A stretch of 64,000 nucleotides of DNA from Vicugna vicugna (Eukaryota), in the NCBI GenBank assembly GCA_013265495.1, contig MU057597.1, positions 622,207-686,206 of the forward strand, in the 5' to 3' direction. The notes under the pieces were generated by a model. It was not told where the DNA came from. It saw only the letters and a program-made list of their open reading frames with translations, and did no database searches. Shown here piece by piece: positions 2,725 through 55,272 of the stretch. Both the position numbers and the translations under genes were made by a program. Every line of letters begins with the position of its first letter. Position 1 is the first letter of the stretch.

Positions 2725-3142
2725 NNNNNNNNNNNNNNNNNNNNNNNNNNNNNNNNNNNNNNNNNNNNNNNNNNNNNNNNNNNNNNNNNNNNNNNNNNNN
2801 NNNNNNNNNNNNNNNNNNNNNNNNNNNNNNNNNNNNNNNNNNNNNNNNNNNNNNNNNNNNNNNNNNNNNNNNNNNNNNNNNNNNNNNNNNNNNNNNNNNN
2901 NNNNNNNNNNNNNNNNNNNNNNNNNNNNNNNNNNNNNNNNNNNNNNNNNNNNNNNNNNNNNNNNNNNNNNNNNNNNNNNNNNNNNNNNNNNNNNNNNNNN
3001 NNNNNNNNNNNNNNNNNNNNNNNNNNNNNNNNNNNNNNNNNNNNNNNNNNNNNNNNNNNNNNNNNNNNNNNNNNNNNNNNNNNNNNNNNNNNNNNNNNNN
3101 NNNNNNNNNNNNNNNNNNNNNNNNNNNNNNNNNNNNNNNNNN
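2725..3142. other. Assembly gap (418 N) with duplicated flanks
   Basis: N run; 1850..2724 is repeated at 3143..4017 (offset 1293) with only two substitutions seen. Confidence 0.97.
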
Positions 3143-3403
3143 GGATTATTTTAGAAATTTCACACAGTTCAGCATATATTGCTAATACGATTTCTCTAAA
3201 CAGTCGAAAAATACAGGAAAATATTAAGGAAGAGTATGTCTGTGGCATGACTGGGGGGTATAATAGAAACTATCAAAACCCAGGCTTAACTGGAGGGGGA
3301 GGGTAGAGCTCAGTGGTAGAGCATGTGCTAAACACGAGGTCCTGGGTTCAATCCCCAGTACCTCCATTAAAATAAATAAATATACCTGATTACCTTCCCC
3401 CAC

Positions 3404-3450
<47 letters not shown>

Positions 3451-4317
3451 ATGTTTTGAATTTAAAAAAAGAAATGTTTACAAAGAAAAAAATGAGGCTT
3501 AACTGATTAAAAAAAAAAAACAAAACTCCACATACAAAACCCAATCTCTACGAAACACAGTTGAATGTTGTTCTTTCAAAGCCAACAACAAGCAAAGAGA
3601 AACTAAGAAGAAATGCCGTTCCCACATCACTGCTTGGGTATTTTTGGCAAAAATAAGGAAAACATAATCTTAATCTATCATGAAAAAATGTCATTTTATG
3701 CAAACTTCCATCAATACATACCTCCCCTGTTCTGGATTCTACAGTGCATTTAAATAGTAAGCATTTCTTACCAGTATAAGAGCAGTCTCTCCTGCTTAAC
3801 TTTTTAAAAATTTGATTATTCGCTAGAACATCTCTCTTTGTTTCTCAGAACCTTGTGAATAACATTTGACCGCTAAAGTCATCCTGTTCCATGGACATTT
3901 CTTTTCCTGAGAGAGTAGATGTTGCATGCAGTTTAAACAAATCACTCCACCTTCTCCGTTTGCTGAGATCCCCAAACCCAAACCCGTGCCCGTGGGAACC
4001 TTGGATCACAATACTTTCACCTGCTAATCTCTCACAAAGGGAATATGGTCGTTATAAATTATTAATTCTTGGTGGGAATTCTTTATGCTCTAAAGGGACC
4101 CTGGAGGCAGACAATTTTAAGAAACGATTCTGCAAAACGAGAGGAGTATTTTAAACAGCTGATCTTGACTATCACAACAATAAGAAAAGAAGTTATAGAA
4201 AACCACCTCCTTAGGCTGGAATTTCAGGAGCAGAGAACGAAAGGTTTTAGCTTTTCAATCCAAGGCATTTATGGAGGAAGAAAAGATACAGCCTCTGACC
4301 CATGACAGGACATTCAC

Positions 4318-12470: not shown

Positions 12471-12519
12471 TGTGGAGGAACAGGTCCTCCCCCGCAGGGA
12501 GAGAGGCCTTCTGAAAGCC

Positions 12520-13450
12520 TTGCGGACTACTGAGTCGTGAACTACATTTCCCAGAAGTCTCTGAGGCACAGCTCCGTTAGTGCCGTTGTGGAGTTGCATG
12601 CTGGGAAACAGAGCCAGCACGCTTCCAGCTCCGCGGATTCCCGGTTTTCTGGACTGCATTTCCCAGAGGGCTCTGGGGCACGGCCCCGTCAGGAGCGCGC
12701 GGAGTTGCATGCTGGGAGCCGCGCGTCCTGCGCAAAGGATTTTTTTCCCTCCCAAGCTCTGGTTTCCTGGTGACGCTGTCCGGAGTTAACGCCAACGCTT
12801 ACGATCCCTCCTAACGTCCTGCTGATGGTTGGGCCCCAAGCGGTGAGTTATTAGCATCCCATGAGGAAACACGCGCCGAATGCCGCAGCGATGGTGGTGA
12901 GGGAGAAAGCCAGGGGGCCCGAAACGTACCCTCGGCCTCTGGCTGCGGGAGCGGCTGCGGAGGAAGTGCGAGCGTGTGTGTGTGTGCGTGTCTGTGTGCG
13001 TGTGCTTGTGTGACGGGCTCGGCCGTGTGCATTGACTGAGGTGTGCGCATGAGCGTCGGTCAGGGAGACAGGCCCTATCTTTGTGGTGGTGACGCACTTG
13101 TCTGTTGTGTGTGATGGGGACGCAGCGGGGCCCCGTCCCCAGGGCTGTGCCTCGCGTGCGTGTGAACGTGACTCCGCCACTCTGCTCTGTGTGAGTTACA
13201 CGCGTGTGGGGTCTGCGGGGGTGGCGGGACCCAGTTATGTCTCTGTGGCTGTGAGATGTGCTTTTGCATTTCTGTGGGGTTGGCAGAGCCGTTCGCCGTG
13301 TCTCTGGCGTGGGCGTCAGTCGATGTGACAGAGCCAAGATGTACCTCATGACAGTGTGTACGTACGATTGTTCGGCTGTGACAGGTGCGGGATTGTGCTT
13401 GGGTATGTGGCCACGGATTGAGTCAGCACGGGGCTGTGTGACAGTGTAAC
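12520..13450 (+). promoter_or_regulatory. ZNF331: CpG-island promoter and first non-coding exon of ZNF331, with tandem ZNF143/ACTACA-type motifs
   Basis: High CpG density. actacatttcccagaag at 12541, actgcatttcccagagg at 12653, gagttgcatgctggga at 12591 and 12702. Donor cg|gtgagt at 12842/3. Candidate 5' UTR exons 13897-13965, 14319-14376 and 18569-18654. Confidence 0.8.
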
Positions 13451-14744
13451 CTGTAGCTCTGATGTCTCTGCTGCTCCCTCTGCCTTCACGGCCCAACCGT
13501 GTTGTACTTGTTTGGGCACAGCAGCCCCAAAGGGAGGTCAGAGCCTGAACCCTGTAATGACGATGACTAACAAGAACGGCACAGACATCGTCCTGAGATG
13601 GCAATTTTAAAGCTGAAGGTGCTTTCCATTCAGGCTGCCTGACTGACAGGATGCAAAAGCCTCAAGAATAATATTCATTTTTTGGAGGGGAGAGGCCCCT
13701 TACCTGGGAGGTGGGGGAACCCCGATTACTAGAGCCTAGTCTCCAGGAATCTCTGAAATACTCAGATCTCAGTGCCCTCTGATTTCTGATTGATTGTAGA
13801 TAAGACATGGGACCAGGTGTCCTTAGAGAATATTTTCTGATGTTGTCTGTGCCAGAAAGGCCCTAGTGTCTCATTCTGTCCTCCTCTTTCCTCCAGGCCA
13901 GCGATCCTCCAGAAGAGGCATCTTGAGGAGGAAGAATTATCACACCTTTTAAGATCAAGGTTCCTGTGAGTTATTTTTTTTGTTCAGTAAATGATTTGTG
14001 TTTATAGCGTTTAAGAATATGTGCTTTCCTTGGCCCAAAGTGTCCTCCCTAATAATGACTTATCCAGTAATTTCTTCCCAAGAGTCCTGCAGTATATTCG
14101 CCAGAATATTCCCCACTGACCAGCCCTCTCCAGTGAGTATTTACATATTCATTTGGCAAATTGTTTACATCCTCCTGTGTGGGCTTCTGAGAATCCGCAT
14201 AGGATAGAGGAATACTACTGGGAGGTTAATGTTAGCACTTCTGGGGTGTGATTTGGTAAGGGAAAATAATAATTTTTAGGTGGAATCAAATGCTAAGTAT
14301 CTTTGGTCTTTTCCACAGGGCTGACCTTCAGAATGCAGTAAGAAAGAAGGTTTGATCATTTTAGTAAATCACAAAGGTATCAGCTTTATGAGGCTTTTAA
14401 GAGTAGGGTTTGACCAGAAATTGACATAACAATGTAAACTGACTATACTTCAATAAAAAAGAATGCAAAAATAAAAAGAAGAAGAGGAGAAGGATTTGGG
14501 CAAAGATCTTTATCATTAAAGGCAGGGGTTTTTTTTTTGTAATCAATAAGTAGAAATTTGTTGTATTAGCCAGGTGTTATTTGAGGTCTGACAGTTTCAG
14601 TTGGTTTCAGCTACATTTTTGTGTGAACAATGAAAAGCAGTATGGTTTGATTTTGAATATGAGTCCTGGATCTAGAGCAGGGTTTGTGAAAGGTCACATG
14701 TTAAATATTTGATGCTTCGTGGGCAATGTATGATTGAATATTGA

Positions 14745-18645: not shown

Positions 18646-23552
<4,907 letters not shown>

Positions 23553-28935: not shown

Positions 28936-33650
<4,715 letters not shown>

Positions 33651-33886
33651 TCTAGACGGAGTTGAGGAGGCTCAGATCTGCTGAGAGAACGAGACAAAAA
33701 ATTATCAAGGATGTCCATCCACCCTTGGCCCTGGGACACAAATTCCATGGAGCAACGGACTTATGGGGAGCAGGTGGTAAAGGGACACACTGAGCAAGTT
33801 CTCCAACTCTGAGCTTTGATTTCTTCAAACATAAAGAAGACTTTTAATATATTTCAAAGTTCCCAGAAGAGCGGCTTGAAGAGAAG

Positions 33887-41500: not shown

Positions 41501-43032
41501 CTATTTTTTTTCCACACAAAAAATTTAAATCCAAAGCTGACATCCAAGGGATCCATATTTGAACAACCCTTTCTTATGGTGGGTATATGGATTAGCAACC
41601 GTGGCAAGATGAGGCTTTAGGAAAGCCAGCAGCAAAGTCATCCACACCATGTGTAAGTATCCAGGAATCTCAGTCACTTGACAGCAAGCTTGACTGCTGC
41701 GGAGAGCCAGTGGAAGCTCAAGGTTTTGAGACTAGAACTGTCTCGATACCTCATCCATGCCTTTCTCTCCTTTCCAGGAAAGCACCAGAAGTATCCACTA
41801 AGGAAACGAACTATGTTCACAAAGAAACAATTGGCAGCTTTGAACTTCTTTTTCAGTAAAAACCCATACCCTAGCCCCAGCCTACAAAGAGAAATGGCCT
41901 TGGAAATGGAGATACACCCAAGAGTACTGCAGGTCAGAAAATAACACCCCACCTCTCCAAGCCACCTCCCGGAGTACCCTAAACTCAGGGACCCCAGGAT
42001 AATTCCTGAAGCTGGATACCACACCAGTCCCCAAGATTCCTAGCACCCAGACTCCTAGGTATACCCAGTTGCCCTCTCTCCTATCCCCTAAAGCAAGAAA
42101 CAGCAAACTTTTTCTATAAAGGGCCAGATAGTAAATATTTGTGACCCATACTCTCTGCCGCAATCAACTCTGCCATGATCACATAAGAGCAGCCATCGAC
42201 CTTGTGCAAATAAATGGGTGTGTCTGCATTTCCATAATACTTTCGGGACACATGTTTGAAGGTCATATGGTATTCATGTCACAGAATATTCTTATTGTAT
42301 TGCTTTTTTTCCCCCAACCATTTCAAAATGTAGAACCTCTTCGCTCATGGGCCTTACAAAAGCAGGCGGTGGGTCCGATTTGGCCCAGGAGCATTTGCGC
42401 GTGACACCAGCCCTAGAGCATCCCCTGGAGGTGACTGTTTTGCTCTCCTGTCTCTTGCTCTGGGTGTGCTCTGGTCCCTGCCTCGCTTTCTGGCCCCACA
42501 GCCTCTCACTTCTGCTCCTTCCTGGATCTAGGTTGTCAGGGGTTCCACTAATAGACTGTGAGTGGCAGAGGTGTCGGGCAAAATGAAAAGTCTGGTGGAA
42601 CATCACCCGATTCATCAGCCCCTCGCTCCTCTCTTTTCTCCTTAGGTTTGGTTCAAGAACCGTCGAGCGAAACTCAAGAAAGCCAAATACGAGGATTTTC
42701 CACCAAAACAAGAGGCTCAACAAGAGCAATTAGCTGAGGCAGGAGTCAAAATCAGCTCTTCCAAAGGAAATATGGACACACCTCCCAGACCCCCTGTTGG
42801 TGCCTCCCCTATATCTCTAGTTTACACAGATCATTCAGTGCCTTCCTTCCAACTCAGCCTATGGCCCAGGTGGAAGGCTCTCACAGAGCAGTCTGTTGGC
42901 CACAAAATAGTCCACTTTGGCTGCTGCCAAGACCCTAATGTATACTGTCTCTATCCCGTTCTGGAATCCCAAGCTCTCTTTTCCAGCTTCAGTTCTAATT
43001 CTCTTGGCTCTTTGTCATCACAAAGAATTTAG
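38571..43032 (+). CDS. DPRX: Divergent paired-related homeobox DPRX (189 aa, K50 PRD-class homeodomain)
   Basis: Exons 38571-38598 (MSDPGDLSK G|gtaagc), 41778-41932 (RKRTMFTKKQL..NPYPSPSLQREMA..HPRVLQ) and 42646-43032 (VWFKNRRAKLKKAK..GHKIVHFGCCQDPNVYCLYPVLESQ); 570 nt in frame. The intron sits at the canonical PRD position and the C-terminal motif is characteristic of DPRX. Confidence 0.93.
39912..40418. mobile_element. Solo ERV1-type LTR (507 bp) in DPRX intron 1
   Basis: TG...CA termini with perfect 4-bp TSD TCAG (39908-11 and 40419-22). Confidence 0.85.
40922..41497 (-). mobile_element. LINE-1 3' end, antisense, in DPRX intron 1
   Basis: Poly-T head followed by the reverse L1 3' UTR (gttccctgtgctgtacagtagg, ggctgagtagtattccattg). 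Confidence 0.9.
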
Positions 43033-43100
43033 TGTGAGATGCTAGACCCAGAAAGTTACATCTGATAATGATTTGTAATGATTCCCTTACAAGGAAACAC

Positions 43101-50718: not shown

Positions 50719-51289
50719 CTAGGCAAATGAATCTGCATTTCACATGAAGACTAAGGAGGCGTCTACGCGTCACATGATGCAGACAGAATAGATGTGATAA
50801 AGCAGTTCATAGTAGCTCAGAATTTTCAAGAATTCTCCAGCTGCCAAACTCCTCATCCGTCTCCCCCCTCTCCAGTTCCTTCAGTTGTGGTTGCCTTTGG
50901 GAGAAGGGGTTGTGACCATCGGGGGCGTGGGGTGCTGCTCATATTCCGTTCCTTGCTCTGGGTGCTGGTTGTACCTGTACATTCTATTTGAGAAAATGCA
51001 GCAAATGGTACAGTAATGACGTGTCCACTTCCCATAATTTGTGTTGTATTACAATTCAAAGACACAAGCAAACAAATTCTTGCAAGAAGCAAATCACAGA
51101 TTCTCTACCTTAACCTCTCTGGTTCCAAACTGCATTAACTCTTTCTGTATAACATAGAATCCCTGCAAGAAATAGGTCTCACCCCTCCGCGGATTAAAAA
51201 GTGTTTACCCAGCACGTAACAGGCTTTGTGGGGGCAAGAGGAAAGTTCTTCTGCTGAAAATGAAAATGATACTTTTTACATTACACAAA

Positions 51290-51505
51290 AATAACAGCTA
51301 ACATTTGGGAGAGTATTAATCATGGGCCAAGCCCTGTTGTAAGTTTTCTTCTTTCATCCTCACAACAGCCCTGTGGCCGGGGCGGGGTGGGGGATTCTCC
51401 TACATCCCTGTGCTACTGGTGAAGCCCCTGAGACCCTGAGGGGCCAAACCACAGAGCCAGGACGGGAGCGGGTGCACTGACGGCCCCCCCCAAGCCCCGG
51501 GCTCT
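51290..51505 (-). mobile_element. MIR SINE, increasingly GC-shifted toward the CpG island
   Basis: ataacagctaacattt...tcatcctcacaacagccctgtg is recognisable reverse MIR; the distal part is G/C-enriched. Confidence 0.6.
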
Positions 51506-51544
51506 GCTGCCGTCACAGCCCGCGCCCCCCGCCCCGGCTGCTCG

Positions 51545-52460
51545 TCCAGCGGCACCGCAGCGCCGGGGTTCGTGCGCCTGGGGGGCACCGACGCGCGGGG
51601 ACTCCAGCCCCTTCTCCCCGCTGTGCGCCTGGTCACTCCCGTGCTGACCCTCCCGGGGAACCTGCTCATCGTCACCCCGGCCGTGGCCGACCGCCGCCTC
51701 GCCACCCCGAGGCTCCGCTCCTCCGGCACGCCTCGCTGCGGGAGCCGGGCTGCACCGCCGCCGTCGCCCCGCAGGCGCTGGTCCCCCCCCTCCCTGGACG
51801 CGGGACCGTCTCCGAGCCAGACGCTTCGCCCAAACGGGGCTCTACTTCATCCTGGGCACCGCGGAGCCCCTGCTGCCGGCGGGGATGTCCGCGGACCCTA
51901 CCTGGCCGTCTGCCGGCCCCGGCGGCGCCCCGCCCTCAGCACCGCTGGGGTCTGCCCCGTCCTCGTGCTGGGCTGCGGGGCGCAGCCTCCTCTTCCTCGC
52001 CGGGCCCAGTGTCTGGGTGCGCTCCCTCCCCTTCTGTGGCCCCGACGTCCTCGACCACTTCTGTGACAGCACGCCCTTGCTGGAGCTGGTGTGCGCAGAC
52101 ACCAGGCCCCTGCAGTCCTGGTGTCCTTCCTGGAGGCCGTGTGCGCCCTGGCCTGTGCCGTGGTGGCGACCAGCCTGTCCTGCGGCCGCGGCATCGGCAC
52201 CGTCCTGCACCTGCCTTCATCCCGGGGCCGCCGCAAGGCCTTCTCCACCTGCCCCTCCCACCTCCCGGTGGTCCCGCTCACCAACGGGAGCTGCCGCACC
52301 GTGTTCCTGAGCCCCCGGCAGACAGGGCGGCTGAAGCTCAACAGAGGAGTCGCTTTCTTCAGCACCATCGTGTCGCCCCTGCTGAACCCCTTCGTCTGCT
52401 GCCTTAGGAATGAGCTGGTCCAGAAAGTGAGCAGGGATTTGCTGATCAAGGTGGGAGGCG
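51545..52460 (+). pseudogene. Olfactory receptor pseudogene (family 6-like), several frameshifts, extremely GC/CpG-rich
   Basis: OR motifs are spread over three frames: GNLLIV..ADRRLATP; MSADP/YLAVCRP; LPFCGPDVLDHFCDSTPLLELVCADT; SSRGRRKAFSTCPSHL; LNRGVAFFSTIVSPLLNPFVCCLRNELV. Confidence 0.9.
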
Positions 52461-53037
52461 TTCCTTCTAAGACGCTCAGGGCAGAAGGCTTCCAGACGGG
52501 CCGCCTGTCAGTTGCTCTCTTTTCTGTCTCACTGAAGGCATTTTTTCCCTACTTGAGCAGGGAAGAAAGCTTGCTGGTTCCCAAGCTGACTGTGCCTGTT
52601 TCTGCATTCCAGGAGAACGGAAGAGGGAGTGAATTGCTCTCCTGCTCAGGACAACGCAGCCTTTTGGCCACAACGCTGGAGACTGCTAGTCATCCTGCTT
52701 ATCCAGTCTCCACGTTACTAACAGAACACTTTGAATTTTATCCGGGCACGTGACGTCCAGCTAGAGACATTTCCCATCCTCCCTTGCAGCTACCTTGGCG
52801 ACATGACTAAGTTTTAGAGGCTGTGGTGTAAGTGGAATGATCTGTGTAATTTATGGATTGTGGTTTCCTAAGAATATTGCATTCTCTCCATTTTTTTTTC
52901 CCTTCCATCTTCCTGCTGCCTAGGGTACACGATCACTGTGGTGGCCACCTTGGGACAAGGGATGGAAACAAACCAACCAAAAAATACATTGTTTAGAGAA
53001 ATCCCATCAGCCTGGGTCCCTGGATGAGCTTGTGTAA

Positions 53038-54065: not shown

Positions 54066-54625
54066 CAGGAAAGGAAGGGCTGGGACACATTTTTGGAGGA
54101 ACGCAGGCTGAAAGGAGATGGAACAGCTTGGAGAGATGAGATGACAGATAAAAATTGTTAGAGGTGGCAGGTCCTAATGTGAGAGTGAGAGGGAAGCCCT
54201 GCCAGCAGCTTCTGGTTTAATTTCCCTGAGACTGAATTTCCTGAGGCCAAATGTCTGTTAAGGATCCAAGTAAAACTTGAAACTATTAGAGGCAGAAAGA
54301 ATCTGGGGACGCATGCATCACACTTTCAAAGGAGAAGTTCATGTGTCAAAGAGGGAGTGAGGTTTAGGCTGGTTCTTAAAAGGCAATTAATTTTTCAGGC
54401 AAGGAAGAAGGAAGGAATGAGAAGTAAACCTGTAAGAATTGTAGTCTTGGGAATAAAGGTGTTTAAAAGAAAGAAAGAAAGAAAAAGAAAAAATAAATTA
54501 AATAGGAATCCTTCAACACTCAAAAACAAAAAGAATGGTGGTCTTAGAGGGGAGGGTAGAGCATGTGCCTAGCACATGCAAGGCCCAGCACTCAAAAACA
54601 ACAGCAACAAAAAGAATGGTGGTCT

Positions 54626-55136
54626 TGTTATGGAAATGACAGGCCAGCCAAGAAACAAGCACCACTCGGAGGGTTGGAGCACTCAGATTTATTACACCGG
54701 CGGGCTCAGAGGGGCTTCTGCTCCGAAGCTCTGAGCCCCTCCAAGACGTGCACATGAGGTTTTATAGGGTTAATTACAAGTATGGGGCTATTAGCCAATA
54801 AGGTTCAAACAAAAAGCAAGGAATCAGTACACTGGAGCTTATCAATTTGGAACAGATCACGTTACTGACACTTGTTGAGCTTGGATTTACGAGTTAGCTT
54901 GTTAGCCCAGTAAACTGACACTAAACTTTAGATTTACAAGTTAGCCCGGCAGAACTTATATCAGTAAACCGACACTTATCACACTTAGATTTGTGACTGA
55001 GCTCGTTAGCCCAATAGACTGACACTAAACTTCAGATTTATGAGTTAGCCCAGCAGAACTCAGATCAGTAATCCGACACTTGTTGCACTTAGATTTGTGA
55101 CTTAGCTTGTTAGCCCAGCTGGGCTTTCCCTTCACA
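54626..55136 (-). mobile_element. Young solo ERV1-type LTR (511 bp) with tandem U3 repeats
   Basis: TG..CA termini and perfect TSD GTCT (54622-25 and 55137-40). Reverse TATA (ttttatagg, ~54760) and reverse AATAAA (~54688). A ~105-bp unit is repeated in 54865-55120. Confidence 0.88.
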
Positions 55137-55143
55137 GTCTTAG

Positions 55144-55272
55144 AGGGGAGGGTAGAGCATGTGCCTAGCACATGCAAGGCCCTGGGTTCCATCCCCAGTA
55201 CTGCCATTAAAATAAATAAATCTAATTACCTCCTCCCTACAGAACATAAATAAAAATTTTTTAAAAAGAAAA
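55144..55272 (+). mobile_element. Vic-1-like SINE
   Basis: ggggagggtagagcatgtgcctagc...gggttccatccccagtac with AT tail. Confidence 0.85.

Follow-up and report, generated by a model that had tools for sequence, protein, structure and literature searches.

A CpG island over a dead OR6AL olfactory receptor gene in a camelid as a probable scar of GC-biased gene conversion

Default recombination hotspots at hypomethylated loci operate in the majority of placental mammals (39/52 mammals; Joseph et al. 2024, PMC11161765), and a text search of the main text of that study returned no mention of camel, alpaca, or horse. Episodes of gene conversion biased toward GC (gBGC) confined to single exons or lineages load proteins with deleterious A/T to G/C (W→S) changes; these episodes are described as short and followed by compensation (Riffis et al. 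2025, PMC12290510). Among olfactory receptor (OR) genes, rat Olr1 is named Or6al1 in the unified nomenclature, and the nomenclature table assigns three members to 6AL, all from rat; human, chimp, orangutan, dog, cow, mouse, and horse have none there (Olender et al. 2020, PMC7160942). An imprinted CpG island lies near a comparable position in human, where the gene order is ZNF331-DPRX-C19MC-NLRP12-MYADM and the C19MC island occupies chr19:53,647,823-53,648,987 (PMC10404189). The surrounding C19MC DMR spans 5 kb (chr19:53,647,261-53,652,354, hg38; supplement of PMC9163035), contains short tandem repeats (PMC9163035), and is maternally methylated in placenta (C19MC literature including PMC3975056).

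Here we describe a CpG island that coincides with a dead OR6AL gene in a window of Vicugna vicugna DNA (the whole stretch analyzed, 64,000 nucleotides). On the strength of sequence comparison, we hold it highly probable that this island is the scar of strong and lasting gBGC over OR6AL at a long-lived hotspot.

The GC peak and the receptor pseudogene beneath it

The bounds of the island were set by a 200-bp sliding scan of the window, and its GC profile was taken in 100-bp bins. It is the most GC-rich of the three CpG islands in the window, with a maximum of 71 to 82% at 51,500 to 52,000, and the flanking 100-bp bins have 28 to 56% GC. An initial annotation had described a frameshifted OR pseudogene richer in GC and CpG than its flanks, and this description was upheld (Table 1). 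GC rises into the island over an upstream repeat (38, 53, and 68% across the successive 100-bp bins of 51,201 to 51,500), which we take to be a MIR element as recognized by eye; nhmmer and blastn aligned no other MIR copies in the 64-kb window as in-window controls, and the shift ascribed to this MIR is visible only as that gradient. The three ZFP57 hexamers noted earlier at 51,549, 52,188, and 52,292 are correctly placed, and their number is at chance level, as had been implied (3 observed versus 1.76 expected from 1000 dinucleotide shuffles, P = 0.27). No CCAAT, ETS (GGAAGT), or TATA hexamer occurs in the island, none of seven motifs tested is enriched in it, and TRF found no tandem array of note there, returning a single 22-bp row at the score threshold.

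Table 1 Features of the island and its neighborhood (positions in the window)
Feature	Position	Strand	Remarks
KRAB zinc-finger gene	19.7-23.5 kb		Upstream of the island
Cationic amino-acid transporter-like (SLC7A) gene	29,700-33,700	-	Between the zinc-finger and homeobox genes
DPRX-like homeobox gene	41,657-43,035	+	Exons with homeodomain; name presumed from position
Probable MIR element	51,280-51,480	.	Label assigned by eye; GC climbs across the element toward the peak
CpG island / GC peak	51,401-52,420	.	73% GC, 99 CpG, o/e 0.75
OR6AL (rat Or6al1/Olr1 orthologue) pseudogene	51,500-52,486	+	7tm_4, frameshift-aware alignment, tree
Frameshift 1, in PMY motif	51,710-51,716 (about 51,713)	+	Both Camelus models read through in frame
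Frameshift 2	51,808-51,824 (about 51,811)	+	Not present in Camelus models
Frameshift 3, removes R of DRY motif	51,895-51,899 (about 51,897)	+	Not present in Camelus models
Frameshift 4	51,975-51,984 (about 51,977)	+	Stretch skipped by Camelus models
Frameshift 5	52,114-52,118 (about 52,116)	+	Not present in Camelus models

Pfam recognized the OR domain in the 3' piece of the pseudogene (7tm_4, E 3e-7). Frameshift-aware alignment to the hippo, beaver, and opossum orthologues showed five frameshifts and the loss of one codon, with no stop in frame; the missing stop codons weigh little (P = 0.10 to 0.18 under neutrality). The consensus start Met is absent, and the sequence ends at a TAA at about 52,468, or a few codons beyond, as in Camelus. 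GC at the three codon positions is 0.69/0.58/0.91, GC4 is 209/228, and CpG o/e in the coding part is 0.78. The shift of consensus motifs toward GC-rich codons that had been proposed is real, and stronger than the initial annotation could show, but two of its three motif comparisons were misread: the orthologues have the consensus EFVLLG and MSVDRY where EFILLG and MSYDRY were quoted, and the peptides given as "PRLRSS" and "MSADP" are reads across frameshifts.

By sequence, the pseudogene is identified as the camelid orthologue of rat Or6al1 (Olr1), of the OR6AL subfamily. In a 36-row tree, its read-through falls in an OR6AL clade of 15 rows (support 100/100), apart from OR6E/6T/6C/6S, and is sister to the hippo sequence (99/97), with a branch length of 0.53 versus 0.18 for hippo; the topology within OR6AL matches the species tree. 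OR subfamilies are delimited at 60% identity or more to a named member, and the identity of the pseudogene, lowered by erosion, is 58% (173/298) to rat Or6al1, 70% to hippo, 66% to desman, and 64% to beaver. The closest protein is a Camelus gene model, which differs at 39 of 213 comparable codons. With the hippo protein as query, the best 120 of 1,558 matches included a group at 64 to 74% identity from desman, beaver, squirrel, muroid rodents, and six marsupials, followed by OR6E1 at about 50 to 54%; no primate sequence stood in the OR6AL group among these 120. Rat Olr1 falls within one cluster of OR6AL relatives. Open-frame relatives occur in rodents, desman, hippo, and marsupials. Intact OR6AL orthologues are rich in Ala, Arg, and Gly; the Camelus and horse sequences are broken gene models, and hippo retains an open frame of 333 aa. 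Several OR6AL copies each were seen in voles, lemming, and cotton rat. The horse remnants (P0006/P0092) and the eroding open frame of hippo (P0002) are missing from the published OR nomenclature (PMC7160942); GC-eroded copies thus escape OR catalogues.

Indirect evidence ties the gene to NLRP12, which lies outside the window. The two are placed on contigs of equal length in C. ferus, hippo, and Nannospalax, and their models carry near-consecutive accessions in dromedary and beaver; the dromedary model three accession numbers from the OR is a C-terminal LRR piece of NLRP12, which gives no orientation. In hamster, one gene model (P0170) fuses OR6AL to NLRP12 LRR exons, a hint that rodents and camelids differ here in gene order or orientation.

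Upstream in the window, the genes that we presume to be ZNF331, SLC7A-like, and DPRX are named from Pfam and position. The sequence beyond 53.5 kb, up to the window end, is mostly repeats, and the Rfam tRNA matches in the window are tRNA-derived SINEs. At 54,640 to 55,120 an LTR-like insertion, richer in GC and containing a 104-bp tandem duplication, is flanked by a duplicated SINE fragment (54,520 to 54,620 and 55,140 to 55,180). Rfam detected no hairpin of the miR-371/290 type in the window, nor at a relaxed E-value in 43,000 to 64,000. The same sequence occurs at 1,931 to 2,700 and 3,224 to 4,000, on either side of an N gap (2,725 to 3,142), and is probably an assembly duplication. A small CpG island (19,301 to 19,780, 58% GC, o/e 0.74) directly precedes the KRAB exon. 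Another CpG island, at 12,501 to 13,500 (60% GC, o/e 0.81), has repeated actacatttcccag-type motifs, lies upstream of the KRAB zinc-finger gene, and is likely a ZNF331-like promoter. Because a maternally methylated island is known at human ZNF331 (PMC3975056), conserved imprinting is more plausible for the 12,501 to 13,500 island than for the one over the OR.

Polarity of the substitutions and its course across lineages

Polarity was scored at the 203 codons that 10 or more of 13 intact orthologues conserve, and all polarity counts rest on protein comparison. Changes were found at 51 of the 203 codons, comprising 50 W→S, three S→W, and five GC-neutral base changes, with two codons ambiguous. 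The balance of AT→GC against GC→AT changes, which the initial annotation had singled out as informative, is therefore 50:3 and not even. Per-site rates were 0.245 for W→S versus 0.021 for S→W, and GC* was about 0.92. The ratio was 48:3 after the variable N-terminus was dropped and 23:3 when CpG-forming changes were left out, and 15 of 48 W→S changes were transversions. W→S changes were denser in the 5' half (30 in 89 columns) than in the 3' half (18 in 113), and all three S→W changes are also present in hippo.

Neutral simulations, with or without CpG methylation, were passed through the same classifier in four settings of 300 runs apiece. Their mean W→S fraction was 0.27 to 0.57 versus 0.94 observed, a value reached in 0 of 300 runs per setting; by contrast, 2 of 300 runs reached it at GC* 0.7 and 92 of 300 at GC* 0.9. 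With explicit fixation bias (30 runs per cell), B = 3 to 6 fitted the data, whereas B ≤ 2 failed, with a probability of three or fewer S→W changes of at most 0.03. GC-neutral changes, five in the observed data, numbered about 17 in simulations at B = 1 and 4 to 7 at B = 3 to 6. Under B = 1 without CpG decay, S→W changes averaged 24.7 versus three observed. When tenfold CpG decay was added, three or fewer S→W changes occurred in 67% of runs at B = 4 and in 100% at B = 6, and the CpG o/e was reached in 3% and 17%, respectively. In these models, a B of 3 to 4 with little CpG decay fits best, and B of 4 to 6 with tenfold decay is also compatible. The earlier proposal of hypomethylation, gBGC, or both is thus narrowed: gBGC is strongly supported (50:3 overall, 23:3 outside CpG), but hypomethylation by itself is insufficient (24.7 versus three S→W changes).

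At the protein level, the W→S lean is found on the stem of the camelids and on both branches within them, as well as in hippo and horse. Polarized by branch, W→S:S→W was 11:0 on the camelid stem (with 13 differences unpolarized), 18:1 on the window branch, and 7:0 in Camelus; against the consensus it was 17:6 in hippo, whose frame is still open, and 19:2 in horse. The Camelus and horse counts come from automatic gene models whose in-frame parts were picked by eye. The 13 intact orthologues pooled gave 36:52, with no W→S lean, and the decayed OR6E1 controls gave 4:11 in orca and 6:13 in Nasalis; pooled counts are partly non-independent, as the window and hippo share stem changes and the rodents are kin. 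At some columns the window, hippo, and horse carry different derived residues (Y318 became C, D, and H, and I356 became R, P, and A, respectively), so part of the erosion is independent in the three. Both Camelus models read through four of the five frameshifts, so the radical W→S changes of the stem would have preceded most frameshifts. From these sequence comparisons, four of the five frameshifts appear to postdate the split from Camelus, and missense erosion would have come before most of them, in keeping with the open but eroding frame of hippo.

NLRP12 also leans toward W→S relative to other mammals (21:8 and 25:6 in camelids, 24:8 in donkey, and 37:18 in banteng; proteins P0368, P0432, P0423, and P0421), so some of the bias is regional, and its sequence suggests raised gBGC across the chromosomal region. 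However, the NLRP12 branches after the camelid split are balanced (7:4 and 4:6), and the summed 11:10 differs from the 25:1 of the OR over the same interval (Fisher P = 0.001).

Gene conversion as the probable cause, and its alternatives

As a cause of this pattern, we envisage meiotic breaks that would return repeatedly to a tract of roughly 1 kb, whose center is the 5' half of the former coding sequence, with mismatch repair in the heteroduplex favoring G/C. Because of this repair bias, A/T→G/C alleles would be fixed several times faster than neutral ones, and G/C→A/T changes, CpG decay included, would be held back. A GC-rich intact gene could have seeded the island, which conversion would then maintain. 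We infer recombination as the cause, together with hypomethylation and PRDM9 independence: a single persistent hotspot, most likely of the PRDM9-independent "default" kind, would sit on a germline-hypomethylated island and feed itself. The persistence of the bias over several lineages would suit such a hotspot, although PRDM9 hotspots following one another in a region of high recombination would produce a similar footprint. The existence of the island needs no promoter or imprinting role. gBGC may have caused the loss of the gene or may have followed relaxed selection; both are compatible with the data. It is a tentative and rather doubtful extension that one hotspot, more than 70 My old, drove the parallel loss of the receptor in camelids and horse and is eroding the hippo copy.

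Two other processes could in principle produce a CpG-rich relic. An already GC-rich OR could have kept its CpGs merely by being unmethylated in the germline, with no conversion bias; the Ala/Arg/Gly-rich intact orthologues indicate that the ancestor may have been GC-rich, and the CpG o/e of the coding part is matched most easily without CpG hypermutation. Such an origin predicts near-balance, with a W→S fraction of 0.48 to 0.57 in the no-methylation nulls, and it is at odds with the observed fraction, the non-CpG ratio, and the W→S transversions reported above, which leaves it barely credible. Hypomethylation as the sole cause is refuted by the substitution polarity and could act as a cofactor; in the models, germline hypomethylation is possible and compatible with the data but is not needed to explain the polarity. 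Selection for a camelid- or laurasiatherian-specific CpG-island regulatory element, which would serve DPRX or miR-371, early-embryo genes of the neighborhood, as enhancer or promoter, is also improbable, if somewhat less so. The island is a discrete 1-kb element, and early-embryo genes are reported in the neighborhood (PMC4904359 and PMC4182485). Yet the changes are scattered, involve different bases in each lineage, and are accompanied by many indels, which fits drift with bias rather than conserved motifs; in addition, the seven motifs tested and the Rfam search of 43,000 to 64,000 for a miR-371 hairpin were negative.

The initial annotation had gone further and suggested an exapted OR-derived promoter or germline DMR predating C19MC, so that the camelid island would be orthologous to the human C19MC promoter/DMR and exapted in primates. 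Its geography was sound: the island does lie about 8.5 kb downstream of DPRX (8.4 kb from the DPRX-like stop at 43,032), and its placement of the human island agrees with the published coordinates. The human distance is about 10.8 kb. The sizes are likewise similar (1.0 kb in the camelid and 1.2 kb in human), but a similar distance across repeat-filled intervals says little. A retrocopy-derived imprinted island reportedly exists at RB1, which counts in favor of such an origin. When three oligos of known spacing, distributed over the human island's first 600 bp (a small part of the 5-kb DMR), were placed on the window, their joint collinear score was 41/72 against a null mean of 39.9 (P = 0.28; 200 shuffles). 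This test, which assumes no gaps and spacing within 20%, has a power of 0.93 at 65% identity and 0.65 at 60%. An oligo targeting the repeats of the human DMR matched at most 14/20 anywhere in the window, and the camelid island lacks an array like the short tandem repeats of the human DMR. The ZFP57 sites are at chance level, and the island has none of the promoter hexamers sought, although placental DMRs have few ZFP57 sites, which makes their enrichment a weak criterion (PMC3975056). No primate OR6AL stands among the best 120 matches or in the nomenclature table (human, chimp, orangutan); catalogues can, however, miss GC-eroded copies, as with the horse remnant absent from the 6AL row. In hamster P0170, OR6AL lies 5' of the NLRP12 LRR exons on the same strand. 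In the human and mouse orientation the 3' end of NLRP12 faces miR-371, which would put the rodent gene on the side away from C19MC, and the camelid position would then need a rearrangement or a second copy. In the open full-text literature, we found nothing that links an OR remnant to the C19MC promoter or describes this locus. Taken on sequence, orthology of the two islands is unlikely, and we give it only a slight chance; the broader scheme of a self-sustaining, germline-unmethylated OR6AL hotspot island in the boreoeutherian ancestor, in which gBGC repeatedly destroyed the receptor and the primate remnant, no longer recognizable, was co-opted as the imprinted C19MC promoter, seems to us just as improbable. 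If the human C19MC promoter did derive from OR6AL, a primate imprinting center would gain an origin, but the evidence leans against it.

Significance and relation to known systems

gBGC at a hotspot over OR6AL, our preferred explanation, makes the locus a clear example of a known process, and its mildly interesting part is the recurrence across lineages. It offers a clean, dateable instance in which a non-adaptive process built a CpG island on a dead gene; hippo supplies an open-frame intermediate, and camelids and horse supply two end states, broken separately. Having an intermediate and two end states, it is a usable locus for asking whether gBGC causes gene loss or only follows it.

Compared with the human C19MC DMR (PMC9163035, PMC3975056, PMC10404189, and PMC6346411), the camelid locus shares a CpG island of about 1 kb located 8 to 11 kb downstream of DPRX, but it differs in having no sequence match for the three oligos, no tandem array, and no miRNA cluster downstream in the window. 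With rat Or6al1 (PMC7160942), it shares the strongly supported clade, a topology that follows the species tree, and the linkage to NLRP12; unlike that gene, the camelid copy has five frameshifts and no start Met, and the catalogue has the subfamily in rat only. The default hotspots with gBGC peaks (PMC11161765) resemble it in a GC* peak of about 1 kb over a CpG island and in activity common to distant mammals, whereas the camelid island sits on a dead OR coding exon instead of a known promoter, and breaks and hypomethylation are here inferred. Finally, the exon- or lineage-specific gBGC episodes (PMC12290510) show the same clustering of non-synonymous W→S changes at conserved residues; the OR6AL case differs from them in extending over camelids (stem and both branches), hippo, and horse, and in ending in gene loss.
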